Assembly (NCBI GenBank): GCA_040954595.2
Contig: CM082581.2
Location: 2,720,699 to 2,784,698, forward strand
Origin: Balanoglossus misakiensis
Taxonomy: Eukaryota > Animalia > Hemichordata
Direction of reading: 5' to 3'
DNA: 64,000 nt
The position numbers and the translations under genes are program-made. How positions within the stretch are numbered: position 1 is the stretch's first letter; the number at the start of each line of letters is the position of its first letter. The notes under the pieces are model-generated. The model saw only the letters and a list, made by a program, of their open reading frames with translations, had not been told where the DNA came from and did no database searches. Shown piece after piece: positions 11,530-39,522 of this stretch.

Positions 11530-11684
11530 GCGTGGCAGGGCTGCGTGTTAACAGCTATGCCATAGCTGACACTGGTAGCTTATAACAGTCTCGATGGTGT
11601 AAAAAATCTCCCCAACAACAAAACTAATTCTGGTCAGTTTATTCGCTATCGCTTTGCCTTAAAAGTTATACTGTAGTGTGTTAC

Positions 11685-12101
11685 CACAGGGGGCTCTCCC
11701 TCCGCGATTTTATTGTTTGTTTGTTTGTTGTTGTTGTTGTTGTTGTTGATTGGCATTATAAACAAATACATATTTCTTTATTAATAAATATGGTTTGTTG
11801 ACATGTAAGTGTTAGGGAATATTCAACGGTTAGCATTAGTGTTGGCACTTTTTTCGATCCACGGCCCCGGGCATCACTAAGCCACGAAGAGAGGGTGATG
11901 CTGGCCGTGGATCGCAAAAATGCCAACACTAATACTAACAGTTGAATATACCATAACCTGTCAAATATACCCTAATAACCTAACCCTTACATGTCAACAA
12001 ACCATATTTATTGACAAAGAAATATGTATTTGTTTATAATGCCAATCAACAACAACAACAAACAAACACACAATAAAATTGCGGAGGGAGAGCCCCCTGT
12101 G
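11685..12101. mobile_element. Palindromic MITE with CAC..GTG ends
   Basis: CACAGGGGGCTCTCCCTCCGC..GCGGAGGGAGAGCCCCCTGTG inverted repeats extend through most of the element. It is flanked by direct repeat GTGTTAC (11678-11684, 12102-12108); an alternative reading is CCAC..GTGG with TGTTA. Confidence 0.85.
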
Positions 12102-12547
12102 GTGTTACGGTACCACCTGCCCCACAATGACAAAGCTGACTCGAGGCCACGAACGACGTACAATTTACTCGCACGGTGTAAAACAACGCATGAATTCCAT
12201 GCGACTGTGAGTTTACTGTTCGGCGCTGTAACGCTTCCCAAAGTCAGAATTTCGATGTTGGGAAGACACTGTCGCCCTACCACTACCAGTTTTTGCAAGA
12301 AGGAGTGTACATGTACTTGTAAAATAACATTAAATGCCATGCTTACCAGAGAAACGACATCATCAAGCATGGAGGCGACCGGGACCTCCATGCTTGATGA
12401 ACGTCGAAGCTGCAATGATTTTTCAAATGCAACGGTCAGCGGTACGAGAACGAGGCAGCACCTGCTCGTCAATTATGCAAATTAGTTACTACTCAATCAG
12501 AATCTTGCTTTCGCATTCTAATTAGTCAAAGTATGCAGTGCAACGTT

Positions 12548-14189
12548 TGTGTGCGGGTGGAGAATGCGCCTCGCCAACTGATGAATTCTCTGTCACGGCG
12601 TTCTTTGGAAGTGCGATTATGTAACCGATTATCTCATTAGGGACATAGATAATATATTTTGTCTTCTTCAATTTGTTTGTACTACGAAAACAATTGCGAA
12701 ACGAATAGCAAGCGCTTACGCTATGAAACGTAAATAAATATCAGTCATGGCCATGTAGAAACGGAACGTCAATCCGCATTTGTCAAAAAATAATAGAAAA
12801 GACAAAGAAGCTGAGGGGAATGACCTCTCCGTTCTGACCTATCTGGGGAAGGCCTATTGCAATACGCAATATGTCAGATCATGCTACCATCCGCCATTCT
12901 GATTGGACGAGAGCTCAATCCATCGATACGAAAGTACTCAATAGAGCACTGCTGAAACTGGCCCTGAACTAATCGCATGCAACAGGGAAAACGCGACCTT
13001 TCAAATCAAATAAATACAAAAAATACAGCCAATGAATTTACGGCCGGCCGGTTTATTTCTTAACTGCTCTATAGGAATTGTTGTCACTGCCATGGACCAC
13101 TTCGCGGATAGCATAACACAGGGTGTTGTGGGACAGTTTGCGTTCTGAGCGCGTGCATTAGCCATGCAGTAGACGCTATGTTGAACGCAAATTATACCAT
13201 CATGCATTGCAGATACCCTATCCGCGTAGTGGTCTATGCACGATGCATGTCTTGTCACTGCGCACTCGACAAATTGGACCGTTTCTATAAAAAATATGAA
13301 CTGTGACTTTTGATTTTATTGAGAAATGTCTCTCGAATTAAGACCATGTAACGTAAATCAAGGAAATGTATTCTGCTAAAGTTGCTCCTGACGGGTTCGC
13401 TGAAACATTGTGTTATTGGTAAAATACGTCAAGTGTAAAATATTGAGTTACCTAATATGATAAAATATCAGATTTATGTGTTTAATCAAGATAGGCCTCT
13501 CTTCATATGTTTCATTTATTTGGTTTGAATAAAAGTTATCTGATTCAGTTTCATGAAGTATACACGGATTAAATGTTTATCCACTGTAGTGCCACTGAAA
13601 TGGCTTTCACGTTTGAGACTTCGGGCGGTAATCTTATATTTACTTTCTTCATTTCTATTGGAGTAGACTACACCGGGGTCGACCTAAAATATCTATAAGC
13701 AATGCGCAAAGGGAGTATTTCAGTCGTGATGACCGGACGATGTCGGACAAAGTCTACAACTTAATACACGATCACCTCCAATTTGCATATGTCCATAAAT
13801 GGCTAAACTTGCGTATCCTAGTGTTCTAAAGAACAAATGGTGGCGCTCTTATTGTCGCGTGTGCCACCTCCTGATTATCTGTGATTGGCTGTATCTCAAT
13901 TTGCCATGGTAACAGTAGCTAAATTTGCATAGGTTACCGTATACCTTTAAGGCACGTCAAGCGTATGTCCTTGTTGGGCTGTCTGACAGGAACGAATCGA
14001 GACCCACCGCACAGTCACGCAATAATGAAATCCACATCGCCAAAAACGATGTTTCACTAGACTCGGGTACATGCAACTATCTCATGGCATTTACAGAATT
14101 GAACACCCCAGGCAATGTTACGTGTTGCTCCATGACTGTTGCTCCATGACCAACCAAACAGCAAACAACAAACTCATGTCCAAACCAAT
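12548..14189. repeat. Copy 1 of a 1.64-kb tandem duplication; copy 2 = 14190-15446 + 28573-28886, interrupted by the Chapaev element
   Basis: TGTGTGCGGGTGGAGAATGCG starts both copies and CATGTCCAAACCAAT ends both. ORFs 13925-14149 and 28621-28845 are identical. Copy 2 lacks ~75 bp present at ~13626-13700. Confidence 0.92.
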
Positions 14190-15446
14190 TGTGTGCGGGT
14201 GGAGAATGCGCCTCGCCAACTGATGAATTCTGTCACGGCGTTCTTTGGAAGTGCGATTATGTAACCCCGATTATCTCATTAGGGACATAGATAATATATT
14301 TCGTCTTCTTCAATTTGTTTGTACTACGCAAACAATTGCGAAACGAATAGCAAGCGCTTACGCTATGAAACGTAAATAAATATCAGTCATGGCCATGTAG
14401 AAACGGAACGTCAATCCGCATTTGTCAAAAAATAATAGAAAAGACAAAGAAGCTGAGGGGAATGACCTCTCCGTTCTGACCTATCTGGGGAAGGCCTATT
14501 GCAATACGCAATATGTCAGATCATGCTACCATCCGCCATTCTGATTGGACGAGAGCTCAATCCATCGATACGAAAGTACTCAATAGAGCACTGCTGAAAC
14601 TGGCCCTGAACTAATCGCATGCAACAGGAAAAACGCGACCTTTCAAATCAAATAAATACAAAAAATACAGCCAATGAATTTACGGCCGGCCGGTTTATTT
14701 CTTAACTGCTCTATAGGAATAGTTGTCACTGCCATGGACCACTTCGCGGATAGCATAACACAGGGTGTTGTGGGACAGTTTGGTTCTGAGCGCGTGCGTT
14801 AGCCATGCACTAGACGCTAGGTTGAACGCAAATTATACCATCATGCATTGCAGATACCCTATCCGCGTAGTGGTCTATGCACGATGCATGTCTTGTCAGT
14901 GCGCACTCGACAAATTGGACCGTTTCTATAAAAAATATGAACTGTGACTTTTGATTTTATTGAGAAATGTCTCTCGAATTAAACCATGTAACGTAAATCA
15001 AGGAAATGTATTCTGCTAAAGTTGCTCCTGACGGGTTCGCTGAAACATTGTGTTATTGGTAAAATACGTCAAGTGTAAAATATTGAGTTACCTAATATGA
15101 CAAAATATCAGATTTATGTGTTTAATCAAGATAGGCCTCTCTTCATATGTTTCATTTATTTGGTTTGAATAAAAGTTATCTGATTCAGTTTCATGAAGTA
15201 TACACGGATTAAATGTTTATCCACTGTAGTGCCACTGAAATGGCTTTCACGTTTGAGACTTCGGGACGGGCGCAATGGGAGTATTTCAGCCGTGATGACC
15301 GGACGATGTCGGACAAAGTCTACAACTTAATACACGATCACCTCCAATTTGCATATGTCCATAAATGGCTAAACTTGCGTATCCTAGTGTTCTAAAGAAC
15401 AAATGGTGGCGCTCTTATTGTCGCGTGTGCCACCTCCTGAATATTT

Positions 15447-15494
15447 CACGTATGTTTAAAACGCCGGATAACGTCAACTGAGTTCTACGCATGC
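15447..15494 (+). repeat. Left bipartite TIR: CACGTATGTT - 15 bp - CGTCAACTGAGTT-nnn-CGCATGC
   Basis: Read directly: box1 15447-15456, spacer 15457-15471, box2 15472-15484, CGCATGC 15488-15494. Confidence 0.9.
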
Positions 15495-16088
15495 TCAGAA
15501 AAAATTAGCATAATTCTTGGGTCATGACCTAGATAGATGACGTATTGTGTGTAAATACAAAGGAACGGCCCATAGAAACCGTCCCGCCCCTTCATGTTTC
15601 CCCGGACTTTCTGCCAATAAATTTGGACCATTAAATGTCAATAATCTGTCAAACTATCCATATATGTCTATATTTTTCGCATAATTAGCTGTATGGGTGG
15701 TTCCAAATCCAAAACGCGCGAAATTTTGACTTTGCGGTCGTCGAGCCTAGTCCGCGTCAGACAGACGCTCAGGCTGGGTGACGACATCTGTTTCACAGGT
15801 TACGTAAAAAATAATCGTATTTTAAACAATTTTCTTGAGTTTTACTTGACATTTGGTTTTCAACAAACGTTTCTTCATCAATTACATTTTTATTTTATGA
15901 ATTAGTTCTCTGAGGCTAATTTTATTTTCATTGCTCTCCAGATAAAAATATTTTTTTTTGCGATCGTAGGAGACGCCCGTTGCTAGGGACGCCATTTCAT
16001 TTTTTGCTGTCGGTGATCGCATTTTGTTGTTTGATAGGGTACTTTCGCTTTATTTTGGGGGTTCGATTTTAGGTTGTGATAGAAAATA

Positions 16089-19000
16089 ATGATGTTTGGT
16101 TTAGAATTCCATAGATTTTGTTTGAGTAAATTGTGTAGAATTTGTGGGGGGAGAGCCCAAAGTTCATTGAGTTCATTACAAGGAAAATCGCCCAAGCAAT
16201 GTTCTGTTTATGTCAACGAAATATTATCAGTTTTTGGGGTTGATATTTCGAATGATGAAACAGATGTACATCCCTCAAACTTGTGTTTCCTATGTTACAA
16301 AAAAATATGTAACAATGCAAATTTTTATGGTACCAGTGATCAGTGGGTGGGCCATCCTAGGGTTGGGTCCTGTAGTATATGTGAGATGTTTACAAAACAA
16401 AGTAAGGGTGGGAGACCAAAAAAAAATAAAAGGGGAAGGCCACCAACTTATAAGAAAGGGGAGGGGGAATATACTATCAATTCTGGGGAGGGGTCAATTT
16501 TGACAAATGAGGGGTTGGAATATCTAACAACACAAGCCAGGGCTTCACAGACATTTCATTGGCCAGAAAACTTCAATCCAATGCTAACTGAAAATGATGT
16601 TAAGTGTAGTGTGTGTTTGTCTTTGTTCAATTGTCCATTGGAAAGTCCTTGTGAACATGTCTTCTGTAGTGAGTGTCTAATCAATGTATTCAAAACTGAA
16701 AATATGTCATGTATTCGCTGTCCTTGTTGTAGTCAGCCGGTCTCATGTTTTTCTGTTCGTCCAGCTAAACGTTATTTTCTGAATGTTTTGTGTTCTCTTC
16801 CAATGGAATGTCTTAATTGTAAACAAACTGTTGTCCTTGATTCTGTGTCGCAGCATGTCTGTCCCCAAAGCCCAAAGCCTGTCCCCAATGTCACAAATAT
16901 TGAAAGTACAATTACCGCCAATATTTTACAAAGGCCACCAGACTTGCCACTCACTCCTGCATTGGAAAAGGTGGCAACTCATCTTCTTAGAACAAAACTT
17001 CACCAGTCAACTGATGGTAAGACTGCTGTTTACAAAACTGGCGGACCGGTGAGTTTCACTTTCAATATCATAATCATAATTGCGTGCATGGCATGTTTAC
17101 ATTAACCCTTTCAATTCAAAATGAAACTGGAACATTTGTTTGATTTCAATAAAATGTAAAATTCTAAATTTGTGAGCTGCCAGTACTCAAACAATGAAGC
17201 ATCAAGATAAGAAATTAATTTAAAGAAATAGTAATTTTATTGTCTTTAATGATTTTCAAGAATCTTGTTGTGATGCACACTCCACAACCAAGAAAATCAT
17301 CAGAGCAGGCAACAAGGACTACCATCAGACAAAGGTCCAGGTATCTGGAAGAACAAAGGGACATAATTAGTAAGGGCAGTACAAACCAGCAGCACAGAGA
17401 TGAGATACAAGTGGCATCAAAGCAACAAAGAATAGATCAAATATTTGACAAAATACCAAGAACAAGAGTGAGTCATGAGGAGATGCTCTCATTGAAAGCG
17501 GATATAGGGATCTCATGGAATTCCAACAGAAAACTGAAAAGGTAGGTTGATAGCTATGTCACAAGTTATTGCTAATCACATGTCATAATTTCATGCATAC
17601 AGCTGCTTAGTAATACATATAAAAATTATAATGATTGTCTTACAAGTCTTACATTCTTTTTATTTTATATCAAACTCAGATGGTTCAACCAATGTGGTGT
17701 AAAAACAGCTGGAGAAGGCAAGATTAGACAAGTAAAGGAAGACATCGTCGGAGAAAACATTCTTGCTGAAAATCTTCCTTTTAGGTTTACAGACGAGAAT
17801 GGACACAAACAGATGAAGCTGGCACCATGGATATGTGTGGATGACTTACCCTTGAGGGTCATCAAACAATTGGAAGAAAATGACAAGTAAGTTTGAAACA
17901 ATATCATTTCTTTTTCTGAGACTGGCAAACAGGACATTGACTCATGCATAATACTTACCTTTCTATCTACGCTAAAAAAATATGAAGACATGGGGTCCAT
18001 AGAGTCCTGGAAAATCCTGGAAAGTCCTTGAATTTGATAGTGTTCCTGGAAGGATGCAATTTACCCCAGAAATACCTGGAAAATAATCAATAAATAACAA
18101 TGATTATTCATCGTGTTTATACAGATAATAGTATATGTAGGTCGTGTTAACTATATGATCTTACCGGTCAACACTTCTAAAAAATCAAGATGTTTGTTTA
18201 AATACTCCTGGAAAACTAGTTGGAAACTCCTGAAATTTTATTTGATACCACATCTAAGAACCTGGTGATGAGTTAGTGAATTATGACATGTTCAATACTA
18301 AATGGTTTCCTGGTTTATTTTGTAGACTGAACAACCTGACATGGCACAACAAAATCCCAGCTAAAGAAATATGGCTGAAAATCGGTGGCGACAAGGGAGG
18401 GGGGAGTTTCAAAGGCATGTTTCAATTGGCTAATGTGCATCGTCCAAACAATAAAAACAACACAGTCGTCTTCTGTCTCTATGAAAGTGGGGACTGCTAC
18501 TCGAATTTGGTCAAAGCTATTGCAAGGTTCAAGGAGCAGATCAATCGATTGAAATCATTAACCTGGAAGTAAGTTTATTTCTTAACATCAAACAAGTTTT
18601 GTGTAGAACTTCAATTATTTAAAGATATGTTATCAATACAATTTTGGAGTACATTGTAGTATGAGACAAAACACATATTTCTCACTAATGATGTTTTCTT
18701 TTATTTTGATTGGAATAGAGACAAAGCATTCCGAGTATTTGCTTTTGGCGACTACGAGTACCTTTGTAGGATGTATGGTCTCAGTGGTCCAAGTGGAAGG
18801 CATTTCTGCCTATGGTGCCTTGCCACACAAGAGGATGCCCAGACTGCAAGGCACCACAGGCAGATACCTCTAAGGACCCTGGCCCAATTGGAACAAGACC
18901 ATGACAAGTTCAACACCCTGGGTAATGGCAAGTTAGCTAATGCAAAGAAGTACAATAATGTCATACACAATGCCATCTTTGACATTGAAATATCACAGGT

Positions 19001-22000
19001 AATCACAATTACTGACTTCTAATTAATTTTCTCTTGTCCCTATCCAGTCGATACTGATAACTGTGGTTTTAATTTGACAATAATATTCACCAACGATTTA
19101 ACCACTGTCTCTGTGCTTCCCTATATCAAAAGCAAGGATGATAAATTATACTATGAATTTTACTGTTACAGGTGTGTGTACCGAGTCTTCATCTTGATCT
19201 GGGAATCTACCTGAGGTTTTATAACCTGATGGAGGCAGAAATAAATGCATTAGACAGGAAAATCGGGGTATACCTCGCTGAGTGCCATGCTGACACCAAT
19301 GGGTACACCCCTGAGTTCCAACAATATGTACTAGCTATGGAAAAAGTTGCTGAAAAGCAAGAAGATTTACTGCAACTAAAGCTTCAGACTCAGAGTGACA
19401 ATCTACAAAAAGAAATAGAACTACTGGTAAGAAATCATTATATGTACATGTATTGGCATGGTATCTGTACATAACTCATCTGAAAATATACTGATGCCAG
19501 TGATTGTACCTAACAAATGAAATTCTGCTGAGAAAATGAACTTGTAAATCATACAAATTTAATCCCTTTTTTATTATAGGAGAAGGCAATCAAGGACATG
19601 TTGGAGAACACCACATTGAAAGTCACAGCTGGCATACTAGCCCAAAAGCTCGACAGTGTACTCCAACAGATTGGCGTTCACTAAGTATTTAAAGCCGCAT
19701 CACTTCGCTCATGGATATGCCTATTGTTAAAGGAATGGGTCTGGGCTTTTGGAGGCGCATCCATAGCGAAGTGTAAAACCTCTTATATTCAAAAAGCGGG
19801 AGGGCGGGTGGGAATACATTCGCAAAGGATTTACCGAGGGGGCTGGTCATATAAAATCCCCACCCTGTCCCGTTTACGCACATAGCCCTGCTCTCTTGGC
19901 CTATTGCAAGGGAGGGACAGACTGTACGTTGCTCGTTGCTTTTATACTTCGGCTCATTTGCATATGGCGGATGGATATCGCTCTGTGCTGCGGTTTTGAA
20001 TAACTAAGTATTTAAAGCCGCATCACTTCGCTCATGGATATGCCTATTGTTAAAGGAATGGGTCTGGGCTTTTGGAGGCGCATCCGGACGCAAAGCCTAT
20101 TCTCCTCGCGCTTGAGCCCATTATTACCTAGTTGGGTATCCCCCCAATCCTTAAAATACAGTCAACCAAAGTAACAAACAAGCTTCCACTACAAACACAC
20201 CCAACCTTCATCCAACCATAAATTACGGCTGGAAATGAAAAAGAACGAAAAACGGTACCTTCATTTTATTGTGCTTTATTCCGTTATAAGTACTTGAAAA
20301 TTGTCTGGTGCACTCTTCCCTGTCGGGGTATAGTGCGAGAGAGAGAAAACAAAGGGGAAAAAAATAAATTTACTGTGTCAGAGAAATACATCGGGAGGCT
20401 CATTTTTTCTCAACAAAAGCCTTGGAAAATCCAATTAACTCATTGAGGTTCTCATATCTTTTTGTGTTCTGCTTTTCGTCGTTGGCTAACTCAGATAAGG
20501 TGCTTGCTGGTGATCCCCAACTAATGACCTTCCCTAACTGCATATAGTACTGTGCCGTTTCTTCCGCCCTCCAACCCACATGGGACATAAGAGTCTTAAT
20601 GTCCGTGCCTGCCATGGCCAAAGAAATAGCGCAAGCACTTCGGCAGCCATGTGGGGTTTCGCCTGCGTCGATTCCTACATCTAGTAGGTATGTTTTTAAC
20701 CGGTGATAAGCTAATTGCGATGAGAACGGTTTTTGCTCTGGCACTCCCTGTGAGTTTGTAGGGCGAAACAGGTAACCTGTTGTAAGGTCGATATCGAGGC
20801 TGGATGCAAGCTCGAGATATGCCTCCAAAGTGTTAATCGGACACATGAGAGTATCTTGGCATCGCTTAACTGCGAATAGGTTTGACCCCGCCCCCCGGAG
20901 CGTTTTACCAAAGGTGTGATTGAAGAGCAGGCCTGAATTATCGGGTAGCCGCAAAATTTCCTGCGTTTTCACGTGTCCTAAATCATGCGCCCTGTCACCA
21001 GAGAAGGCTAGTAATTTAAAAAATGCCATATCCCTGGCGAGAATGTACAATTGTTGAGCAGTTTGTGGGCTCTTCATTTTGTCTATAATATGACGGTAAA
21101 TTAGCCGCATCTTATCTAGAAAGAGAGGTTTCGCCTGCTTTGGTGTCAGGAGTGCTCTGGCCTGTTCTTCAGATGTTTTCTTAATGTACCTTTCTATTAT
21201 AATTGACTCCAAGGGGTTAGGGGTGGCCTTACCGGCTACCACTGCCTGGGACTGATAAAATGTCTTTAATTTGGAGACCATATTTCTGACTGTATTGGCA
21301 CGGAGCCTTTTTGGACAAGCACACTGCTGGAGTCCAGATGATCCTAAATGTGCACAATTTACCTCATGTACCTGAGTTTTCGCGTCTTTATCTTTAAAAA
21401 TAAGGAACCTAGTGATATCTTGGGGTGTTGCCGACCAGATACTTTTTTTGCTATCCAACTTAAAAAGGAACGACTCCAGTTGTTGGACGAGACGGTCCTT
21501 TTGTATTTCATGTTGAGAGCGATCGCCGAGAATGACTTGCATACGCTGATCGATTTCCGGCAGGTTAAAACCAGTTGGGAGACTTCCCTGGGCATGTTCA
21601 CGCTGGCGAGAGTAGTGAGTCTTGGTGCCACAGTTATGGCAGTAGTTTTCGTGATGATTGTCCAACCCGCACATCCAGCAGTCCTAAGCGGGGAAAATTG
21701 GACAAGCACGTGAAGACGTACAGTGCGCATGATTTATTCGCTTGTATATAAAAAAAAAATACGTATATTTATCCGTTGAATAAAATTATTTTGTTTCTTT
21801 ATTTTTTGTCTGTCTGTCTCCATAATTAAGACCTAAGGGGCGAATGTAGCGACAAAAAGGTCGCACTGTAGCTTATACGGATGATAACCCGATCGTGTTG
21901 GCCCAAGCACGACGCCGACCTCCCCTCGACTGGCGAATTTGTTGAAACTACGTGCCGCCCTCTGGATTGACGGCCAGAACGGAGGGTAGTGGCTCCGAGG

Positions 22001-25000
22001 AACGAGTACTGTTGCTTTTAGTGCGTTTTGGACGATGTGGTTCACAACAGCATGCACGAGCGAGAATGGAGGGTAGACATATAGGTTCTCATCTGGCGCG
22101 AATTTATAATTAAAGAAATTTACACCGGTGTTTTCGGGTTGTGGAAAAGCGGAAATGAATTTGGATAATTTAGCGTTAGACTTGTTTGCCATAGCATCGA
22201 TTGTGTGTGGGCCAAATTGCCTGTCTATTTTCTTCCACGCCTCATCCGAGAGTGTGGCCTCTGACAAGGACAGGTGCCTAGATGGCTGATCCGCGGGATT
22301 TTCATGTGATCTGACGTGCACTATCCTTAATCGAATATTCGACTCAAAACACAGGTTGAAGATCTTTTTCAACAGTTCGTTTAAACGAACTGATTTTGAT
22401 CCGGGGAAGCCGCCATTCCATGCGTGGACTAGGATTGCGGAATCTGAGTGTATGTCCACCCGCGCGTCGGCTAGTTCTGACTTGAAAGCAACAAGTGCTC
22501 TGGCGAGAGCCTCGGCTTCCTTTTCTGCTATTGGTCTGGGCATCCACTCGGTTTCCCACGAGTCACTGACTACTTGTCGCTGTTGCGAATTTGGCTGCAG
22601 TATCGCGGCCCATTTGAACGAGCTGGCGTCGGTGTATACATGTATAACGTTGTGGCTTTCTCGAGGCCAACGAAATGGGGGAGCGTTACGTACAATCTGG
22701 AGCCAAAATTGCACTTCCTCCCGAAGGGGGCCTTTAATGCGCACCAAGTTCTGTGCCGATACCTGCATCTTAGATATGGCATGTGCCATTTGTCTTATAT
22801 ATAAACGCGCACAGGGGATTGCGAGAGCGAAAGAAATGCATTTCCCCATAACTTTTTGCAATAAAGTAACTGGAATAGTGGGTTTGGAAAGTACTAACTC
22901 TGCCGTCTCGAGGAAGCGAGCTACTTTCTGTTCTGGGATGATGAAAGCTTGAATTTCCGTGTCTACCGTCATTCCTAGCATTATTAGCGACCTAACGGGG
23001 TGCAGTATGCTCTTTTCTAAGGCAATGAAATACCCTGCATCGATGCACATAGCTAACAGGATGAATGCAGCAGCCTCCGCTAGTTCCAAGTCAGACCAGG
23101 AGCTGTGTTGTCTGCCTACGGTATTAGCCGTTGCTGGCAATCTCAGGGGGCCACCGTGTCTGTCGTCAATATATTGGAGGCACGGAACTCCTAACATTCT
23201 TGCATAACTAGTTATCGCATAGCCTAAGGTATGGTAGATGTAGGCGGACAATTTCCACCCAAACGGTAATGAATTGTTCACGTACCAACGGCCTCCCCAT
23301 TGGAAACCAAAATACCGCCTGTCGTATTCCCTAATGAGAACATGATCATAGCCGCTTTTATCATCACACTTGAAGTGGTATTCTCCTTTTTTCATATACC
23401 TTGAAACGTCTATTAACTTGTCCAGTTTAAAAGGCATGTCTCTGATCCATAGATTCAGGAAGCGCATGTCTATGCACATTCGCGGCTTCTTCGGTTCGAC
23501 TGTTATCGGCATAACTATGTGGGGAGGTGGGTCCCTCCCAACTTCACCAAAGACAGAAATGGCCCCAGTCTGGAGTCTATCATGTATGGTTTTGGAAATG
23601 AAACCAACGAAATTTTGACATGAGGGGTTATTAGCAAAAATCTTTGCCGGTGGAGATGGTCCGTCATATTGACATCCCTTAAACGTGCCCCGAAAGTGCT
23701 TGAAGTACTGTGAAACGTTGACTTTGTCACATATCCAGTGCATAACTTGAGCCGGATTCTCTGCTGCCGTCGATAGGCGATTCCACACCTCCTTGTGTTT
23801 ATGAACCTCCCCGGCGACAAATTCATGTGGGTTTCTAAAAGATAGTAGTGCGGGCGACACTTTCTTGTTGGATTTAGCGACCTCATCGACATTGATAACG
23901 GGTCTCCTTGGTTCCTGTCGAGGGGCGCCCTCAAGAGATACCCATGTGTACGACTTTCTGGCGACTGGAAGTTCCTCAGGGCCGGTTTCCCATGCGTAGG
24001 GAGTGAACTGAAAAGGATAGATATAAACTGTGGGCTACTACATGTAAAAATGTTCTCTTGAGGGGGCCCCTAGACAGGACCTCAGTAAGGCGAGGCTGCA
24101 TGAATGCAAAGGACTGTTTTAGTCCTCCCTGCGTTCGGGGCGATGTTTGGTGTATGATAAATACGGTATATCCGCTACTGGTTGAGTGGGGCCAATCTAG
24201 GAAGGCGAGATAAAAACAAAACAAAAAACACCTTTTTTTTTTTTTTTTTTTTTTATTTATTTATTTTTTTTATTCTCAAGACAACCTTTTTAATTGTCAC
24301 GGAGGGTTGTAAGCACCTCGACTTTTCGTACATATCAAGTTATCAAAAGCATCACAGCAAGTTCTTAATCGTGGGTGTGCGTGTAGCGTTTGCTGAAGCC
24401 CAGTTCCTCAGGCACGTTTTTTGCGATTTTATGTATATGCGTGAATGCGTTCCGTCCATAGTGCGAGTGGTTGTGGAAAGTATGCGATTGTGCAGGTGTG
24501 CATGAAGGCGTCAATTAGTGTGCAGGCGACCGAGAGGAGTATGCGTGTAGGTGTGCATGCGTGTACGTGGATGAGTAACCCATGTTTACTTGCTGTGACG
24601 AAAAAATATCCACGATCAACAAGAAAAAAAAAAACAGCAATGTGGTTACACTACTTTCTATTTGGGCAGGCTCTGGCAACATGCCCTTTCTCACCGCATA
24701 CAAAGCATTTGACTAATTCATCTTTGTTTCTTCTCTCGTATGGTCTAAATCGTTCGAATTGTGCTCTTGGGCGACGATAGCCGCCATGGCCGCTATCCCG
24801 CATAAACTTCGACACTTTCGACGCGATTTCCTCCTCTTCTTTATTTCCCAGTAGTAGAACTATCAACCTCCCAGCTTCTTGGCCGAAATCATTCGATTCA
24901 AACTGGGCTAGGACCGCCCGGAAGCGATGTAACTTTGGGTGAGCTGCTACCGTCGCCCTATCCACCAGGGCCCTCAGGGCGGCGATGAGCTGGGATCGTG

Positions 25001-25519
25001 AGGTTAACGATGGAGTATGGGCCAGGTGCATGACTTTTTCCAAGGCGTCATCCACAGATGCGGTTTCTGTCAATTCTTGCAGTTTCTTCACCTGCTTCTT
25101 TAGGTTCTCCAACTCCCCTTTCTGCAATAAACGTACACATACAATAACTTCTCTGCCCATTACCACGGGTGGAAAGTATGCTTGCTCTCCCGTACTGAAT
25201 ACTCCCCTTTTGTTTACAGGGCGAGCGCCTTATTACATAGGCATCAGCAAAATTCAAGGCGAACATGCTTCTGCCACGTAAATGACCGCTCACGTTGCTC
25301 CTCCCTCGAGCCTATGTATTTCCTTTGGCCTCAGCCACAATAATTCGGCGCTCTCGCAGTCATCACCGGATGAACTGCCTGGCCGGTCTCCTTGGCACTC
25401 ATGGGTATAACCCACCCAGCTCTATTTAACAAACAAATGTTGGCGCTCTCGCAGTATATCACACTGCCTGGCCTGCCGCTCACTCCTGTAACTCCAAGTA
25501 TTCGACGCATATTGCATAG

Positions 25520-25562
<43 letters not shown>

Positions 25563-27079
25563 CAACTGGCGAAACAGGTGGTGTCAGGCCTAACAGGTGG
25601 CGGAGTTTCAAAATGGTGATTTGGCCTTCCACCTGCACTAGGAGAATTCGGAAGGCGAAACAAAAGGACAAACACGAGGAGAGAAGTTTTGGTGGCCCGT
25701 AGTGCATAAAAAACTGCACTGCAAAACAAAACCGAAATGACCGGCGGCATACAAGGGGGAATACTAACCTGGGTAACACTGCTGCTGACGCTTGTTGCCT
25801 CTCCACTTGCTGGTGTTGGTGCAGGCTTAGGCGCTGCTGCGGCATTTTGCTGGGGTGTGGCACCACTAGGACCGGGTCTTGGCTGGGGAACGGAAAGTTC
25901 TGCGGAGTCCTGGTGTGAGTCCACAAAAGCTCGGGCTGCGGGACCAGTATGAGCCATGGTTCGTGCTATCGTGCCTATTGCAAGGGAGGGACAGACTGTA
26001 CGTTGCTCGTTGCTTTTATACTTCGGCTCATTTGCATATGGCGGATGGATATCGCTCTGTGCTGCGGTTTTGAATAATAGACAGGCTTACCATGGAAGGT
26101 CCTTTGTGGGAAACCATGTTCACAAGTGTTTGCAAGTAAGTTTCTTAGTGATAACATGATCTTACCTTGTAGAGTGAATGATGACAGACTGGACAGCTAG
26201 TTACCCTTTTCCAAGGCACCATAATATTAAAGTATAATAACAATCTGGTATTTGAGAATGAGAATGAGAATATACACATTAATGTATGTACATGGTAATG
26301 GAAATATAATATTATATTATTGATTATATGCTGATTTAAGTTTTGGGCAATTATATCTTCTGAAATGATACTAAATAAACATATTATCTATCTACCTAGG
26401 ATACCAATATCAACAAGTTGACTGATTCTATTCTGTGTGAAGTAGAAACAGTTTGTCCCAGTTTGGCTGCAGAAGCCCGTGCTGTATGTTTCAAATTTAA
26501 CAGGCTATTCAAGTTACTTGCCAGGTGCCACAGTGGTTACAGCAAAGCTGAGAGTATGGAAGCTGCTGAGATTGATGAATTAGGTAGGTAAAGTACAAAT
26601 CAACACTCACCTTATTACCACATCCAAACTGGACCCCAGTTCCGAGAGAGTGTGACGTAGAACAGGGGGTATATGGATTTTTGATCTGTCCTGTCCTATG
26701 TCACACACTATGTCACTAATTTCTATGTAATGTATTTGTTCACCTTACAGAAACAAATATTGACAGCTTGATGGCATATTACAGAGAATATTTTCCCAAT
26801 TCAAGGATTTCCCCCAAACTACATATTTTGGAGGACCACACCACACAATTTATAAGATCTTGGGGATTTGGATGCGGCTTCCATGGAGAACAAGGTGGCG
26901 AGAGTGTGCATGCCCACATGAATAATATAAAATCAAATATCAGAGGACTCAAGGACCCTTTACAAATCGCCAAATCCATGCTGAAAGAGCACTGGGTACA
27001 GGTATCACCAACAACACTCCAACACAAACCACCAGTAAAAAAGAGAAAGTCTAGCGCATCTATGACTAGTGTTACATAG
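16089..27079 (+). CDS. Chapaev/RAG1-like transposase with RING finger, 9 exons, ~965 aa, exon 7 interrupted by a retrotransposon
   Basis: GT-AG exons 16089-17048, 17261-17541, 17680-17886, 18326-18568, 18719-18998, 19172-19426, 19580-19680+26078-26135, 26400-26583 and 26751-27079 join in frame (2898 nt). Motifs: LCRICG, DVHPSNLCFLC, WVGHPRVGSCSIC, RING CSVC..CEHVFCSEC..CPCC, catalytic D (KIGGDKGG), D (FGDYEYLCRMYGLSGPSGRHFCLWC), PSLHLDLG, PKLHILEDH, E (GEQGGESVH). Confidence 0.9.
20400..21683 (-). CDS. Tyrosine recombinase with N-terminal CxxC..CxxC zinc ribbon
   Basis: Catalytic set R (SGDRAHDL), K (FGKT), HxxR (PHGCR), H/W (HVGW), Y (AQYY). CWMC..CHNC begins right after a TTTTCCCCGCTTAG acceptor-like site. 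Confidence 0.92.
   Translation of the reverse strand, partial: DCWMCGLDNHHENYCHNCGTKTHYSRQREHAQGSLPTGFNLPEIDQRMQVILGDRSQHEIQKDRLVQQLESFLFKLDSKKSIWSATPQDITRFLIFKDKDAKTQVHEVNCAHLGSSGLQQCACPKRLRANTVRNMVSKLKTFYQSQAVVAGKATPNPLESIIIERYIKKTSEEQARALLTPKQAKPLFLDKMRLIYRHIIDKMKSPQTAQQLYILARDMAFFKLLAFSGDRAHDLGHVKTQEILRLPDNSGLLFNHTFGKTLRGAGSNLFAVKRCQDTLMCPINTLEAYLELASSLDIDLTTGYLFRPTNSQGVPEQKPFSSQLAYHRLKTYLLDVGIDAGETPHGCRSACAISLAMAGTDIKTLMSHVGWRAEETAQYYMQLGKVISWGSPASTLSELANDEKQNTKRYENLNELIGFSKAFVEKK
21833..24007 (-). CDS. Reverse transcriptase - RNase H - Dam-like adenine methyltransferase (DIRS pol)
   Basis: ORF 21833-23860 stays open upstream to a CCTTTTCAG acceptor at ~24008. RT: PRMCIDMRFLN, DDKSGYDH, LPFGW, YIDD. 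RNase H: YTDASS, HSDS, NPADQPSR. Methyltransferase: IDAMA, YVYPPFS. Confidence 0.92.
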   Translation of the reverse strand, partial: FTPYAWETGPEELPVARKSYTWVSLEGAPRQEPRRPVINVDEVAKSNKKVSPALLSFRNPHEFVAGEVHKHKEVWNRLSTAAENPAQVMHWICDKVNVSQYFKHFRGTFKGCQYDGPSPPAKIFANNPSCQNFVGFISKTIHDRLQTGAISVFGEVGRDPPPHIVMPITVEPKKPRMCIDMRFLNLWIRDMPFKLDKLIDVSRYMKKGEYHFKCDDKSGYDHVLIREYDRRYFGFQWGGRWYVNNSLPFGWKLSAYIYHTLGYAITSYARMLGVPCLQYIDDRHGGPLRLPATANTVGRQHSSWSDLELAEAAAFILLAMCIDAGYFIALEKSILHPVRSLIMLGMTVDTEIQAFIIPEQKVARFLETAELVLSKPTIPVTLLQKVMGKCISFALAIPCARLYIRQMAHAISKMQVSAQNLVRIKGPLREEVQFWLQIVRNAPPFRWPRESHNVIHVYTDASSFKWAAILQPNSQQRQVVSDSWETEWMPRPIAEKEAEALARALVAFKSELADARVDIHSDSAILVHAWNGGFPGSKSVRLNELLKKIFNLCFESNIRLRIVHVRSHENPADQPSRHLSLSEATLSDEAWKKIDRQFGPHTIDAMANKSNAKLSKFISAFPQPENTGVNFFNYKFAPDENLYVYPPFSLVHAVVNHIVQNALKATVLVPRSHYPPFWPSIQRAARSFNKFASRGEVGVVLGPTRSGYHPYKLQCDLFVATFAP
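24651..25166 (-). CDS. Gag-like protein with C-terminal CCHC zinc knuckle (probably the 3' exon of a spliced ORF starting at ATG 25957)
   Basis: CFVCGEKGHVARAC knuckle. TTTATTGCAG acceptor-like site near 25122; upstream Pro/Ala-rich ORF 25957-25769 ends at a CAG|GTTAGT donor. Confidence 0.8.
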   Translation of the reverse strand: MVMGREVIVCVRLLQKGELENLKKQVKKLQELTETASVDDALEKVMHLAHTPSLTSRSQLIAALRALVDRATVAAHPKLHRFRAVLAQFESNDFGQEAGRLIVLLLGNKEEEEIASKVSKFMRDSGHGGYRRPRAQFERFRPYERRNKDELVKCFVCGEKGHVARACPNRK

Positions 27080-27350
27080 AACTGGTGTACGAAAAATTAA
27101 TTGTAGTTCCTCACATAATACTTACCTTGCTGTCTCCGAGAGAAAGTCTACTAGTGCATCTATGACTAAGTGTTGCTTAATTAGAACTGGTGTACGAAAA
27201 ATTAATTGTAGTTCCTCACATAATACTTACCTTGCTGTCTCCGAGAGAAAGTCTACTAGTGCATCTATGACTAAGTGTTGCATAATTAGAACTGTTGTAT
27301 GAAAAATTAATTGTAGTTCCTCATGGCAATACTGTACTTACCTTGATGTG
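27044..27350. repeat. ~105-bp tandem repeat, ~3 copies, overlapping the transposase stop codon
   Basis: AGAACTG(G/T)TGTA recurs at 27078, 27183 and 27288. Confidence 0.85.
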
Positions 27351-28534
27351 TCCGTGGACTCAGGACTCCGTGAATATCTGCAAAGCAAAAGGAAGTATTA
27401 AAATAATATGTAATATAGTGTGTAATATACTGTAGTATGTGAAAGGAATAAACAAATTGTGATACCGTACCACATATGTGATAAACTGTACATTTGTAGT
27501 TTGTCTTTCTTTAACTTTGTTTAGCTTTTTGTATACCTGTTAAATTAAAATATTACACAAGGTTGCACAGTTAAAAGTTCATGTGTTTGCTTTTAATTTT
27601 ACAACTGTCAATTAACCTACCTTAGTACCATCAGATACACAAGATCTAAATAAATGACTGCATCCATCATCAGCATGGAATATTGAGATACATCCACATG
27701 TATGATTAGTGATTACACCATCATGAACATTTGAAAAAAACTGTGTTCTGAATGATAAAAAAAACAATAATTCGTTCAAGTCTAAAAATAAACAGTAGAA
27801 ATGTAGAAATACAGTTTTACTCGACCCTTCACGACTGGTTTACGATTGAACGGGCAATTACATCCTTTGCCAAAACGTTTACGTTTGTTGTGTTGATCAA
27901 ACAATCGAAGGTCAAAATCACTTCCGGTTTATGCGTTAACGATCAGCCATTAAGCATGTTGCGTGATGAACGTAAACATTGTGACCCGTAGTACTTTTCT
28001 GGGGCTTTTCCTCCATTGCGACTTCATTTAATAACATCTATTTTTATCCCTTGTACATTTTAACTCCCCCAAAAGACCAGACATAAGATCTGACATTGTA
28101 TTTGACGTTCAAACCTACCTATTTTATCGTGTACTTTGATGGAATGTCCTCCGTCTGCAAAAAATTAGCCGCACATGTTGTCTGGTCCAGTAGTAGCGAC
28201 AGCTTACGTACTTTTAAATTTGATACCATTCTCATCGGGAAAAACTCAAGAAAATTGTATAATCTATGAATGAATTATCGATTTTCGTAAAATTCAAAAA
28301 AAATACCGTAGCCGTGTTTTCGGCGGTAAAAGACCAAATAAAACGGTTTAATCTTCCGGTTTTCGCTGTTAAGATTCCACGAGACGTGATCGGATCTAAT
28401 TATTAATTCATATAACCCTAACCCCGAGAGAAACGTGAGTTTTTATTGGCTAAATTGAAGGGGGTCACCGTTGCTAACGTTCGTTGCTAGCCTAATTAGC
28501 ATATGATCTCAGGGAAATTCTTGTTCCGTCATAC

Positions 28535-28572
28535 GCATGCGCACAACTCAGTTGACGCATAGAACATACGTG
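28535..28572 (-). repeat. Right bipartite TIR: CACGTATGTT - 5 bp - CGTCAACTGAGTT-nnn-CGCATGC
   Basis: Read on the minus strand: box1 28572-28563, spacer CTATG 28562-28558, box2 28557-28545, CGCATGC 28541-28535. Confidence 0.9.
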
Positions 28573-29952
28573 ATTTGTGATTGGCTGTATCTCAATTTGC
28601 CATGGTAACTGTAGCTAAATTTGCATAGGTTACCGTATACCTTTAAGGCACGTCAAGCGTATGTCCTTGTTGGGCTGTCTGACAGGAACGAATCGAGACC
28701 CACCGCACAGTCACGCAATAATGAAATCCACATCGCCAAAAACGATGTTTCACTAGACTCGGGTACATGCAACTATCTCATGGCATTTACAGAATTGAAC
28801 ACCCCAGGCAATGTTACGTGTTGCTCCATGACTGTTGCTCCATGACCAACCAAACAGCAAACAACAAACTCATGTCCAAACCAATGACGGTCGCAACTCA
28901 TTGCATTAAACAATATAGATGGGGATCCCAAAGAATAATTCAAATATATTTGCAGAATTGCCACGCAAGTCGAGCATATTGTCCAAATTTAAGCACTCTG
29001 CAACTGAAACATAAAACCCAAGCTTTTTACAATACAGGAATTAAAAATTCTGATTGAATTAATGCCAACATAAAACGAAAAAAGACAACTCACAAAATGT
29101 ATATGTAGTGTTTCATGTAGTGTTTTGATCTCAAGAAGACATGAAAAAATCGTCGGGGGAAAAGCAGGTGAGAACATCACCTCATTTTTGGGATATGAAA
29201 TAAAAGTCTATTTTACGGAGACACCTGGTAAAAAGTCCACCCTAGTCTCAATTTTCCAGACCCCTCTGGGATAGTCGAGTAGTCCATCCCCATGAAACTG
29301 CATATTTTAAAATAGCCAAAATGAGTCAATGGGGCATTTTTTCATCCTACCTCAACCTTGCTAAGAGTTTCCGTGCCAGTCACCTGCAAAAATTAAATTT
29401 ACCACGGACAAATTGAAATACAGCCAATCGAAAAAAGTGCGCCACCACATGGTCATTTGAAGACTTTGATGCTCTCTTCTGGCCGTAACCGCATGTGATC
29501 CGGAATAAAATTGAGCCTTGATCGCGTTTTTTATTTTATTTTCACCACCAACGAAAATCTACGACGGCCCAACCGCAGATTATTGCTGCTCCATACAACA
29601 ACCAGCTTATACTGTACATAAGTTTTGTGTTCTGGTGGCATTTGCGGGTCTGAGACGTCATTTCTAGAAGGCCCTATTCGTTTTATACCAATAACTTTTA
29701 CCACCCATGCTGGATTTTTTACGTTTTCTTTGACGACGCTTGACCCTTTTCTTGCTTTGTTGTAGTCTTGGTTACCCAGATGCCTTTGCAAAGGCGAATG
29801 GGTAACAGAGACCAGCTTTGTTGTTGGTAGTTTGTTTGTTCGTAACGTCTGTAACTGGGATTCTTCACTTGTGGAATATACTGCTTATTTCTTGTGTATC
29901 TGCATTTTGTTGATGCTGTCGCTCCTCTGGCAGTGAAGCAAGGGTGCTAGCT

Positions 29953-32062: not shown

Positions 32063-35002
32063 CACGCCCAACCCCGACACTTTTCTTGTTTTACCAATCC
32101 TACCAACTATTGTATTGACTTGTCATTTTAATTTATTCATAGATTTCTTTATTGCAACGATATACCATTATATACTTCAATTACTTTAAGAAAATTATAA
32201 TTGACGTGTTGAGGAGCCTCATTCCCTTTATTGCATACAGTGTACATAGGATCATGACGGCGAATGTTTTCGGAGAGGGGGGGGGTCATCATATTGTTAG
32301 GCCTGTCAAGGGGGGGGGGGTCGTCGTTTTTTTGGTCCTGGGTGAAGGGGGGGGGTTGGCCTGATTTTGAAAACCGATGACACAAACTTGCCAACCTCCC
32401 CCCCCCCAGCCGTAAAAACTGAACGGTCCCTTATTGGATTGGTTACAAAATTGCTGTACGAGCTTTCTATGATTTGACCGCCGAAACCGCGATCAGCGAA
32501 TTGCGTTGTGCTATACGATTCGAGGATAGTCATTCTGAGTAATTGAATTCAATTAGCCTTACATTCCATGCCTGCCTAGCTGCAATAATTGTAGCCTTGT
32601 TGGGCTGGTTGGGTGGCTGGATGGCCCACCATCTACCCACCCAACTAGGCCACCAATGCTTCAATTATTGCATATAATGCCAACCTAGGCCTACTTGATT
32701 GGTGATGTGCGACAAGCATGCTAATAATATATTGCGCTGCACATAGGGTAAGGCTTGCATGCCCAGAGACAGAGTAAAATTTTAACGTTAAACAATATAA
32801 ACAATAAAATGTTTTTTTCACCAAAAAATTAATTTTCCGGTCAGTAGCTGACTTGTTGGAACGTAGGGACAGTATGACAGGTCATACATCTGCCGCCATA
32901 TCACGTAAAAACATCGGTGTAACATGGCCAGAAATAGTACATCGTTGTGATTGGTTGGGATCCTGTTTTGGCGTGCTTCATTGACGCATCCATGAATAGA
33001 TTTTTGTTTGTGTTTGATAGAAAAAAAATGCCCGACCGGGTTGCACAGTTAAGTGGTTTTGGCTACTGACGGGCACTGGGTAGATATATAGAAACCATGT
33101 ATAGAGACAACCATGCATTTTTTTCCGAAATTGTGATTGATACTTAGAACTTCGAAAATCTATACGATTTAACTAAATGCATTTTCTGGTAAAGGTGAAG
33201 TCTGTCAGAACATGATATACAGTTTTTAAAGAGCAGATTACGAATAAAAATTTAAATGCAACTGAGAACCACGTGATTCTTGTCGTAGATTGTCGCATCA
33301 TACAGCCAGGTCTGTTGTGACTTCACAAATGACACGTCGAAATTTCGTGTGGCAAACGGTATTCGCCATCAACAAAAAGGTACCGGGAAAGTTTCGACTG
33401 GCATGCCGGAATTCTGCATCATGTACACCGGCAGGTTTTTTTTGAGATGACAAAGGCGGTTTTTCACAACTTTGCCTTGTCACGTTTATCATGGTAATGC
33501 ACGACGGCCAAATGTCGGACTTGTGTCGGGCAGATTTTGCAGTCCCGACAAAACATATTTCTACAGAGCAGGCTTCGATGGCATACCGCTGTTATCAAAA
33601 TCCATTATTCGACTATGTTCCCAATACCAAGATCGGCTATTCTCGACAGCGACTTTCTCCAGGGAATACCAACTCCGCCGTATGATCTACAAATCAGAAT
33701 GCCAGTGCCGTTTTCATTGACGATGGCATGGAAAAGCTTATGAATATTGGTGAGAATTAGTAGTTCGTTGTTACACAATCAATGTTATTGTAACAGCCGA
33801 CTTTAACGCCACAGCAATACATGAAGCGATGTGGACGCTCGAAAAGAGAGACAAAAGTTCTGTTCTCCTGGTCTCTGCTCTGCTCTCACTAGAGAATGTA
33901 ATTTCATAAAGACAGTACTGAATAAAAGAGATTAAATGCACCAAAAAGTTGAATTTCCTTAATGATATTTTATTTCTGAGATTTGCACATTTTTACTTTT
34001 TCAGGGGTGCAGGAAGCAATTTCTTGTACGGGGACAAAGTTACATATTTTCTGGACACAATTGATTTATGATAAAAATTGAATAGCTGAATAAATTGATT
34101 AATGATTAAATGCAAATAATAAAATGAGAGAAATAGCAAGAAATAAAGTGAACAAATATTATTGTAAAAGCTCCAGTATCTGTTATGATTGACAATTTTC
34201 TCAGTATTGTTCCAAAAATTGAATTCGACTGTGTATTCATTTCACACACATTGCTACAAATGTACTTTCTTCGATCAGCGACTTTCGTTAAAGATTAGTT
34301 TGATTGGCGTCAAATTACTGATACATGAAGCCTCCCAGCCAATTACACTGTATGTTCCAAAAACAACAACATGTGCGCTTCTATTATGTTTGATTTTTAT
34401 ACTTTCAGTTATTCACAGTGATTGCGCCATTCTTTAAATCCATATCCCCATTGGTGTAAAATATGATCATTGGCGGGGGTGGGGGAGGGGGTAAGAGGGG
34501 ATTTTGTGCATGGTGGGGGGGGGGGGTTAAGTATGGTTTTACCCTGCCCCCGAAACTTAGTTAGGGGCGGAGATACACTCCCGGTTTCAAAGCCAATATG
34601 GGGGGGGGGGGGGGTTGTAATTGCTATTACCGGTATATCAACTCGATTTCATAACCTTTTTAAAGATTAAATTTGATAAGAATGGGATGCATTCAATTCT
34701 GGAGAATGTTGTTTGCAACCAATCTCTGTATCAACTTAAATTTAAAGTAAATAAGAATTAAAGTAGCGACGACAAATAAGATGACGAACATGTTTTGGTC
34801 TTTCATTCCAAATAGACTCATCACAGGCATCAGAAAATTTAAACCTTTGGAGTTTCACTCTTTCTTCTGACATTTTGCTTGCTCTTGATGAAAAAAGAGA
34901 GGTTTTCTTGGCATTACTCGATCTTTCCGCAGCATTTGATACTGTGAACCATACCATTTTATATGGAAAGCCATGACTGTCTTATGATGTGTGACAACTT
35001 TA

Positions 35003-35420
35003 TGTGGTGAGGTTATTACTTGACGTGATGGGGAAATGCAACGACGTGGGGAGGTTATTGCTTTACGTGATGAGGACATGCAACGACGTGGGGAGGTTAT
35101 TTCTTGACGGGATGGGGAAATGCAACGACGTGGGGAGGTTATTATTTTGGCGTGATGGGGACATGCAACGACGTGGGGAGGTTAATTCTTGACGTGATGG
35201 GGACATGCAACGACGTGGGGAGGTTATTTCTTGACGGGATGGGGAAATGCAACGACGTGGGGAGGTTAATTCTTGACGTGATGGGGACATGCAACGACGT
35301 GGGGAGGTTATTTCTTGACGTGATGGGGAAATGCAACGATGTGGTGAGGTTATTTCTTGACGTGATGAGGACATGCAACGACGTGGGGAGGTTATTGCTT
35401 TACGTGATGAGGACATGCCA
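35003..35420 (+). repeat. Left subterminal 42-bp minisatellite (~10 copies)
   Basis: Unit GTGGGGAGGTTATTTCTTGACGTGATGGGGAAATGCAACGAC. Confidence 0.92.
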
Positions 35421-38400: not shown

Positions 38401-38695
38401 ATAGGACTAAGCACACTACAGAATGGAAGAATTCCACAGTTCATGAGTGAAGAAGTGCGACAGCAGCTATTTGAAAAGCCTTCTCCATCCCCATGCATTG
38501 AGAAACTGAGACAAGGGTTTGACAAACTTGGCATTTGCAAGGTATGTCGTTATTCAGTCAACAAGTTGGTATGATAAAAGTATAATTTTTAATAAATTCC
38601 CTTGTCAACCTCACAAGCTACATTGATTAGCTCATAGTCCTTATAGCAATCTTCTTGTAACTAGAACAATTTAATGTTAAATCATTGCTATTTAA

Positions 38696-39304
38696 AGGGG
38701 AAATCTGGCCTAGCTGATTTCTACATAATTTGGTAGCTTTGAGGTCACTCTTTCAGAATAAAACATATTTGCCATGTATAAGTCGCGCGATTTTTTACAA
38801 AATCGAGGGAAAGTTGGCAGAATTTCCAATATGGCATTTACTGTAATTTGAATCATGGAAAAAAGCGCCAGGACCAACTTCCGCCCACCATGGTGTGGGT
38901 GATACCATTCTCCGATTGGTGTCACTTGGCGACAGACTAGGTGTATTTGCATAGCTATTGTTTGTACTTTGCGTCAGTTGATAAATAATCATCAGCAAAG
39001 TTGAAAATCTATTGACAGCTTTCATGAGCTATAACCCGTGAAAAAATATGCAAATACGCCTAGCCTGTCACGCAGTGACACCAACCGGAAAATGGTATCA
39101 CCCACACCAAGGTGGGCGGAAGTTGGTCCTGGCGCTTTTTTCCATGATTCAAATTACAGTAAATGCCATATTGGAAATTCTGCCAACTTTCCCTCGATTT
39201 TGTAAAAAATCGCGCGACTTATACATGGCGAATATGTTTTATTCTGAAAGAGTGACCTCAAAGCTACCAAATTATGTAGAAATCAGCTAGACCGGATTTC
39301 CCCT
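38696..39304. mobile_element. Palindromic MITE, Kolobok-like (TTAA TSD, AGGGG..CCCCT ends), in a HECT intron
   Basis: ~255-bp inverted arms, which explain the mirror ORFs 38710-38952 and 39048-39290. TTAA at 38692-38695 and 39305-39308. Confidence 0.88.
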
Positions 39305-39522
39305 TTAAGTAGTCTTACAGTTGTTTGTTTCATTGCAGCTTGTTAAGAAACTACCCCTGCTTGTGCATTTATTTGTGCCAATGCCAACAGTGCCTTGACA
39401 TTCAGAAAGCTGAAGACCCTATTAAAACCCAAGTTCAGTCCCGATGGATCTAATAATCGCAGAGAAGAGAACAACGTGTACGCGAGCTTCATTTCGTACA
39501 TGACAGAAGCTGCAGGCAAGTA

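Follow-up and report, generated by a model that had tools for sequence, protein, structure and literature searches.

Whether unequal transposon ends of the kind known from the 12/23 recombination signal sequences (RSSs) of RAG1-RAG2 also occur in a more distant transposase lineage is the question raised by a locus in the genome of the hemichordate Balanoglossus misakiensis (assembly GCA_040954595.2). The locus is a Chapaev DNA transposon with CAC..GTG termini, which occupies positions 15447-28572 of a 64,000-nucleotide stretch of contig CM082581.2 (2,720,699-2,784,698, forward strand; hereinafter the window, to which all coordinates refer). A preliminary description, made from the letters of the window alone, had noted the same boxes at both ends, separated by spacers of 15 bp on the left and 5 bp on the right, and proposed an asymmetric synapsis that preserves helical phase. 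On the evidence given below, this Chapaev carries the same terminal and inner boxes at both ends, with a one-turn difference between them, and we incline to the view that a transposase with a RAG1-like fold recognises the inner box by means of a predicted domain of the nonamer-binding type and would preferentially pair a short end with a long one, a preference suggested by analogy with RAG and Transib.

The boxes and spacers of both ends read as described. On the plus strand, a target-site duplication (TSD) of 4 bp, ATTT (15443-15446), is followed by the 10-bp terminal box CACGTATGTT (15447-15456), which is of the CAC-N4-GTT type that also terminates TSD-validated relatives, a long, two-turn spacer of 15 bp (15457-15471), the 13-bp inner box CGTCAACTGAGTT (15472-15484) and, 3 bp beyond it, a third box, CGCATGC (15488-15494), which keeps the +10 register. 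Read on the minus strand, the 3′ end consists of the terminal box (28572-28563), a short, one-turn spacer of 5 bp (28562-28558), the inner box (28557-28545) and the third box (28541-28535), and is flanked by the second ATTT (28573-28576, plus strand). All three boxes (10, 13 and 7 bp) are identical left and right, with the inner two placed 10 bp deeper at the 5′ end. A family-wide CAYTTAGT-like core inside the inner box (15476-15484 at the 5′ end) accordingly starts at element base 30 at the 5′ end and at base 20 at the 3′ end. The inner-box 13-mer occurs exactly twice in the window, and a 13-base word shared beyond the terminal box was obtained in 0 of 3000 mononucleotide shuffles of both ends, the longest shuffled word being 10. 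The TSD is supported by an empty paralogous site at approximately 13870-13889, in the adjacent unit of the tandem repeat into which the element is inserted, the length of which fits a 4-bp TSD (with 2 substitutions), and by empty-site joints in contigs of sequencing runs X1 and X2. The figures 5/15 depend on how the boxes are cut; counted in the manner of an RSS (a 7-bp heptamer, a spacer and a 9-mer), in the box register conserved across families, the 3′ spacer is 12 bp and the 5′ spacer 22 bp. The 5/15 arrangement of the preliminary description is thus a 12/23-like layout, namely a 12/22 pair.

This copy does not owe its 10-bp offset to a private indel. All five contigs of runs X1 and X2 that span 15447-15488 align with the long 5′ end ungapped, with 2-5 substitutions, and four of the five extend past the terminus; in run X3, almost none of the element is present. 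For a broader comparison, the best 80 of 93 Chapaev-related loci from a profile scan of metagenome contigs were taken, together with one locus from genome contigs. Pairs of ends with 4-bp TSDs, which the relatives share with the window element, were first located independently of the inner boxes; all TSD-validated pairs terminate in CAC-N4-GTT, and this pattern then served to collect further ends. At least one end was accepted in 41 of the 81 loci, the other 40 (truncated contigs and unrecognised ends pooled) having been dropped before counting. Loci were grouped into families at 75% protein identity, and a candidate short 3′ end of L004, with an irregular, unpaired terminal box, was excluded.

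In nine families besides the window that have both ends on the same contig, a motif-free diagonal scan gave best offsets (5′ minus 3′) of +10, -10, -10, 0, -24, -11, -12, -8 and -11 bp. The offset thus lies within 9-12 bp in six of the nine families (shuffles: mean 1.64, maximum 5.33, 0/500) and in four of six TSD-validated families (shuffle mean 1.03, 0/500); in the first family set, window included, the count within the offset range was 6.5 of 10. A position-free Gibbs search of 30 ends yielded a CAYTTAGT motif that starts at base 20-21 in 11 ends and at base 30-32 in 10, and AACTGAGT of the window, at bases 30 (5′) and 20 (3′), occupies both of these family-wide registers. When 367 CAC-N4-GTT sites, copies within families included, were used as anchors, 28 of 41 motif matches fell at bases 20-21 or 30-32, compared with 10 of 71 for five control anchors. 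Expressed as RSS-style spacers, eight of ten elements measure 12-13 versus 22-24 bp, and the other two, which represent sister families, 16/24 (for L023 and L037 the registers were assigned by hand). L002, a distant family, agrees with the window element in both offset (+10) and polarity.

Spacer length is constant among the copies of a family, in 5/5 loci of the L044 family (at most four insertions, given that L044 and L059 share flanks) and in 4/4 loci of the L060 family, every locus having a TSD of its own, and slips are seen in single copies (1 bp shorter in L046, longer in L010). Furthermore, the inner boxes of the two ends of an element are more similar (9.3/14 identical positions) than those of different families (7.0/14; permutation p 0.0002), and such joint variation of the two ends is expected of a site that is read by the family's own enzyme. 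Judged by sequence geometry, the one-turn, 12/23-like arrangement is the layout of most of the related families read. Across copies and families the spacers are, as a rule, neither equal nor randomly variable, and the preliminary description was right that the ends differ by about one turn; the offset is not always exactly one turn and ranges from 8 to 12 bp.

The two polarities are unevenly distributed. The long end is at 5′ in the window element and L002, and 18 other lineages have either a short end at 5′ or a long end at 3′. On a transposase tree of 29 rows (IQ-TREE; support 97/90, with L013 on a long branch), a single change of polarity suffices. The one-turn difference is retained on both sides of this switch, despite complete turnover of the spacer sequence, which argues for selection on unequal ends.

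The transposase is encoded on the plus strand by a gene (16089-27079) in ten pieces, which, with a nested retrotransposon of the DIRS group excluded, gives 965 codons with no internal stops and only GT-AG introns. Exon 1 (16089-17048) encodes a Chapa/NZD zinc finger (Pfam RAG1_imp_bd, PF12560, E 2e-6), basic GRP motifs and a RING finger (zf-RING_UBOX, E 6.5e-6). The remaining exons beyond exon 2 (17680-17886, 18326-18568, 18719-18998, 19172-19426, 19580-19679 joined to 26077-26135, 26400-26583 and 26751-27079) encode an RNase H-type DDE core with D505/D575/E907 and the C(2)C, LH and H(4)H motifs; Pfam also reports a DUF1280 match (E 2e-15). Homologues colinear over the full length come from a crinoid, among other sources, and partial homologues from a hemichordate and from sponges; the nearest named protein is that of Ptychodera flava (60% over 458 columns). 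One transposase exon is matched by 818 clusters at 50% identity, and exon 5 had no match in a word-indexed protein search and only chance matches by sequence among solved structures. These features, together with the termini and the 4-bp TSD, are those by which Chapaev is defined, with 5′-CAC...GTG-3′ termini and 3-4 bp TSDs (PMC4079192, Zhang 2014) and an N-terminal Chapa domain, joined by a RING in two subgroups (PMC4411706, Kapitonov and Koonin 2015); by the definitions in the accessible portions of these papers, to which our statements on all published work refer, the window element is a RING-bearing Chapaev.

The preliminary assignment to Chapaev, with a 4-bp TSD and no recognisable RAG2, thus holds. 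No RAG2-like open reading frame (ORF) was found: frames free of stops reach at most 79 aa in 27080-28572 and 86 aa in 15447-16088, and a gene in very short exons would escape such a search. The fold of the transposase is predicted to be RAG1-like, as judged from an AlphaFold model of a full-length homologue, P0096 (37% identical; mean predicted local distance difference test score, pLDDT, 82.7), which matches RAG1 (E 3.6e-15), BbRAG1L (2e-10) and HzTransib (5e-6), with 11-14% identity in the alignments to RAG1 and RAG1L structures. About 730 columns of this model align with RAG1 chains that contain the nonamer-binding domain (NBD) and about 663 with chains that do not, some 68 fewer. Exon 2 (17261-17541, plus strand), just N-terminal of the core, encodes the predicted counterpart of the NBD and the start of the dimerisation domain; the segment is predicted to be helical (mean pLDDT 85), and its match to the NBD is only suggestive. 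A two-copy prediction of this domain, in which the alignment was not used, scored 0.01 and is counted neither way. The basic GRP motifs after the Chapa domain, present in the window protein and in 11 of 16 homologues, are a second candidate end reader beside the NBD-like domain. A CCGHC-type C-terminal tail is absent from the window protein and from 31/31 homologue C-termini.

Under the favoured reading, the catalytic core would cut at the terminal CAC, and a dimer of the exon-2-encoded domain would hold both inner boxes on the same helical face. This dimer might tilt to accommodate a short end together with a long one, in the way that the NBD dimer of RAG1, which binds both nonamers, pivots to fit a 12/23 pair (bioRxiv 2023.08.20.553239). 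An element's own left and right ends would then synapse in preference to left-left or right-right pairs, and RAG2 would play no part. The NBD-like dimer is taken as the putative reader of the inner box because RAG1 chains with the NBD align over a greater length and because the CCGHC tail, the alternative clamp of RAGL elements, is absent.

A number of observations weigh against this reading. The inner-box core of the window, AACTGAGTT, is not A-rich, unlike the RSS nonamer. Runs X1-X3 represent one sample of one study, and the base-level evidence from them covers the 5′ end only. The offset misses the 9-12 bp range in three of the nine families (peaks at 8 in L053, 0 in L023 and -24, with a weak box, in L037), the Gibbs search placed 9 of its 30 ends elsewhere, both L002 ends among them, and the motif pattern of the anchor test, like the registers of L023 and L037, was fixed after the ends had been seen. 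Most families belong to one clade and therefore are not independent origins. With respect to the protein, the exon-2 domain alone has RAG1 as its top Foldseek match among 350,542 chains at an E of 1.3, which is not significant, and profile searches of the PDB gave no significant RAG1 match (RAG1L 6b40, E 0.59). In published material, Chapaev3 termini show variable offsets by eye (PMC4079192, fig. S6), and the 12/23 preference is absent from mouse RAG1 without RAG2 (PMC8355894), so that a RAG2-less enzyme may not enforce one.

The main rival draws on several of these points. It takes the inner box for a true transposase site that needs only the right helical face, so that one- and two-turn spacers both work and any pairing is accepted, the asymmetry being kept by inheritance and by overlapping promoter or subterminal constraints. 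The 8-12 bp range of offsets, the 20-bp perfect terminal inverted repeat (TIR) of L023, where the inner box lies at 24/32, the behaviour of RAG1 alone (PMC8355894) and the symmetry of many Transibs agree with it. Under free drift, however, some symmetric families are expected, and a short/short or long/long arrangement of inner boxes was found in 0 of 10 elements (two registers by hand), despite spacer turnover and one polarity switch; we therefore regard this rival as rather unlikely, if still to be taken seriously. It seems improbable that the inner box serves the host as a transcription-factor site or as part of a promoter, with a position relative to the ends that is irrelevant to synapsis. 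Its core is short and common to many families, other recurring subterminal motifs are also present at the ends, and its CACTTAG core looks similar to NK-homeodomain sites; yet the match runs into family-specific letters that change jointly at both ends, lies at two fixed distances from the cut site, the non-promoter end included, and in the window deviates from CACTTAG alike at both ends. A private 10-bp indel in the window copy or family, for which the restriction of the run evidence to one end and one sample could be cited, is already largely refuted and retains a very small probability: besides the ungapped long end in 5/5 contigs, both window ends fit the two family-wide registers, and L002 shares offset and polarity.

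Going beyond the preference for short-long pairing, it is conceivable, and we hold it only tentatively, that a true rule of the 12/23 type is enforced by Chapaev transposases, by means of a single subunit and an NBD homologue, and goes back to an ancestor that Chapaev shared with Transib and RAG1. If so, one-turn asymmetric synapsis would be older than the divergence of Transib and Chapaev, the ends could be read without RAG2, and Chapaev, which also retains NZD and RING, would provide a single-gene, present-day model for full-length RAG1.

Several further observations concern the ends and the families surveyed. At either end, contigs of X1 are interrupted at the G of CGCATGC (equivalents of 15489 and 28540), with a G>A variant at the 5′ end, probably through CpG decay. 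The window element has a subterminal 18-bp inverted match (15826-15843, plus strand, and 28241-28258, minus strand), and several families (L016, L020, L044 and L071) have a third inverted match of 10-19 bp, at distances of approximately 380-405 bp (5′ end) and 315-375 bp (3′ end) from the termini, family-specific in sequence and similar in placement, which may be a subterminal site for the transposase or a host factor. The sister families L023 and L053, with an 8-bp offset (inner box at 24/32), are natural tests of phase strictness. At the 5′ end of L013 (66-105), an A-rich 9-mer at bases 20-28 follows exactly 12 bp and precedes CGCATGC, as in the short end of the window; this single case, in which the other end is missing, matches the RSS nonamer given in PMC1131882 at 7/9 positions. 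A second complete Chapaev (L071:90-4603, TSD ATCT, offset -11) lies beside the matched one, and a neighbour's end lies at 12593 in L062, which indicates that Chapaev elements cluster. In viral contigs, the two-box pattern had 0 matches and three protein scans detected no relatives. A scan of prokaryote genomes gave one locus (L001), where a Chapaev transposase lies on a contig of 2.3 kb, assigned to a bacterial metagenome-assembled genome, too short for ends and most likely host-animal DNA binned in error.

The transposase gene of the window copy is interrupted, within one exon, by the DIRS-group tyrosine-recombinase (YR) retrotransposon (19680-26076, minus strand), identified by Pfam domains (gag zinc knuckle, reverse transcriptase (RT)-RNase H with a methyltransferase-like domain, and YR) and split direct repeats (19680-19762/20003-20085 and 19889-20003/25964-26077), presumably in a PAT-like layout. 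Contigs of X1 and X2 join 19679 to 26077 with DIRS absent; hence, DIRS-free copies are present in the sequenced sample. The summed depth of DIRS exceeds that of Chapaev in X1/X2; internally deleted forms are seen, and the element is young. The sequence into which Chapaev inserted (12547-15446 and 28573-28885) belongs to a very high-copy repeat, of which a 1.64-kb unit is duplicated here in tandem, with a summed depth in the tens of thousands, and a 13-bp inverted pair at 11846/29439 together with a palindrome (11683-12103) may mark a larger host element. Elsewhere in the window are a long terminal repeat (LTR) retrotransposon (44766-50266; identical 168-bp terminal repeats, an RT-RNase H-integrase frame of 1597 aa), a 42-bp satellite in two arrays inverted to each other (34962-35480 and 50934-51863), a SAM-domain ORF (35427-36353) adjoining one array, and a hairpin element of 625 bp, the arms of which measure 266 bp (38688-39312).

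[quoted passage not shown] A conserved geometry in a more distant, large transposase family would place the beginnings of asymmetric end-pairing further back, or indicate repeated arrival at it by this fold. The Chapaev family offers natural variants for a direct test: its enzyme is a single protein, its young elements are present in multiple copies and have intact TSDs, and among its members both polarities and offsets of 8, 10, 11 and 12 bp occur.

Compared with known systems, the window element shares with Chapaev of the CMC/CMCT group the CAC..GTG termini, the 4-bp TSD, Chapa followed by RING, the DDE motifs and the single gene; bipartite ends with a one-turn left/right difference are not mentioned in the accessible text of PMC4411706 and PMC4079192. 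The Chapa domain is described as NZD-like in bioRxiv 2026.01.24.700457, the accessible text of which does not mention TIRs. The preliminary description knew of no such report, and one-turn end geometry appears to be undescribed for the Chapaev group: no description was found in the literature searched, including the available text of PMC12730594 and bioRxiv 2026.08.26.747230, with Repbase Reports, subscription papers and bioRxiv supplements out of reach. Its further suggestion, that the asymmetry may be older than the RAG1-RAG2 pairing, was overstated as a novelty, because asymmetric ends of RAG2-less Transib families (Transib5 and others, with RSS12/RSS23-like ends) were published in 2005 (PMC1131882); the extension to Chapaev is new.

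Membership in RAGL, ProtoRAG or TransibSU was considered and rejected: the TSD is of 4 and not 5 bp, there is no RAG2-like ORF or CCGHC tail, and identity to RAG1 is far from the core criterion of >30% (E 0.59 for the RAG1L 6b40 profile; 11-14% structural identity). Canonical Transib, with a 5-bp TSD and a core-only transposase, does not fit the 4-bp TSD and the N-terminal Chapa/RING. Bipartite TIRs with unequal spacers are nevertheless common to the window element and to Transib and RAGL elements: Subgroup I Transib and AanRAGL are asymmetric (PMC9435367), PflRAGL-A has a 10-bp asymmetry (bioRxiv 2023.08.20.553239), ProtoRAG prefers its own 27/31 pair (PMC8289069), and the form nearest to the 5/15 of the window is that of AanRAGL, with a 13-bp box, 4/13 spacers and a 10-bp box. 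The differences are the 5-bp TSDs of Transib and RAGL, the CTT tail of RAGL and Subgroup I Transib, absent here, and the more distant transposase lineage of the window element; in addition, its long end is at 5′, whereas the Transib families of PMC1131882 have the RSS12-like end there. RAG1-RAG2 has RAG2, a 5-bp TSD, an A-rich inner box in place of the usual CAYTTAGT-like one, and a functional 12/23 pairing rule, which in the window family is a prediction. What the two systems have in common is a CAC start, a second box after 12-13 or 22-24 bp (12/22 in the window element, in keeping with 12/23-type geometry), a spacer of free sequence and, in the transposase, a predicted RAG1-like fold behind a Chapa/NZD and RING N-terminus.

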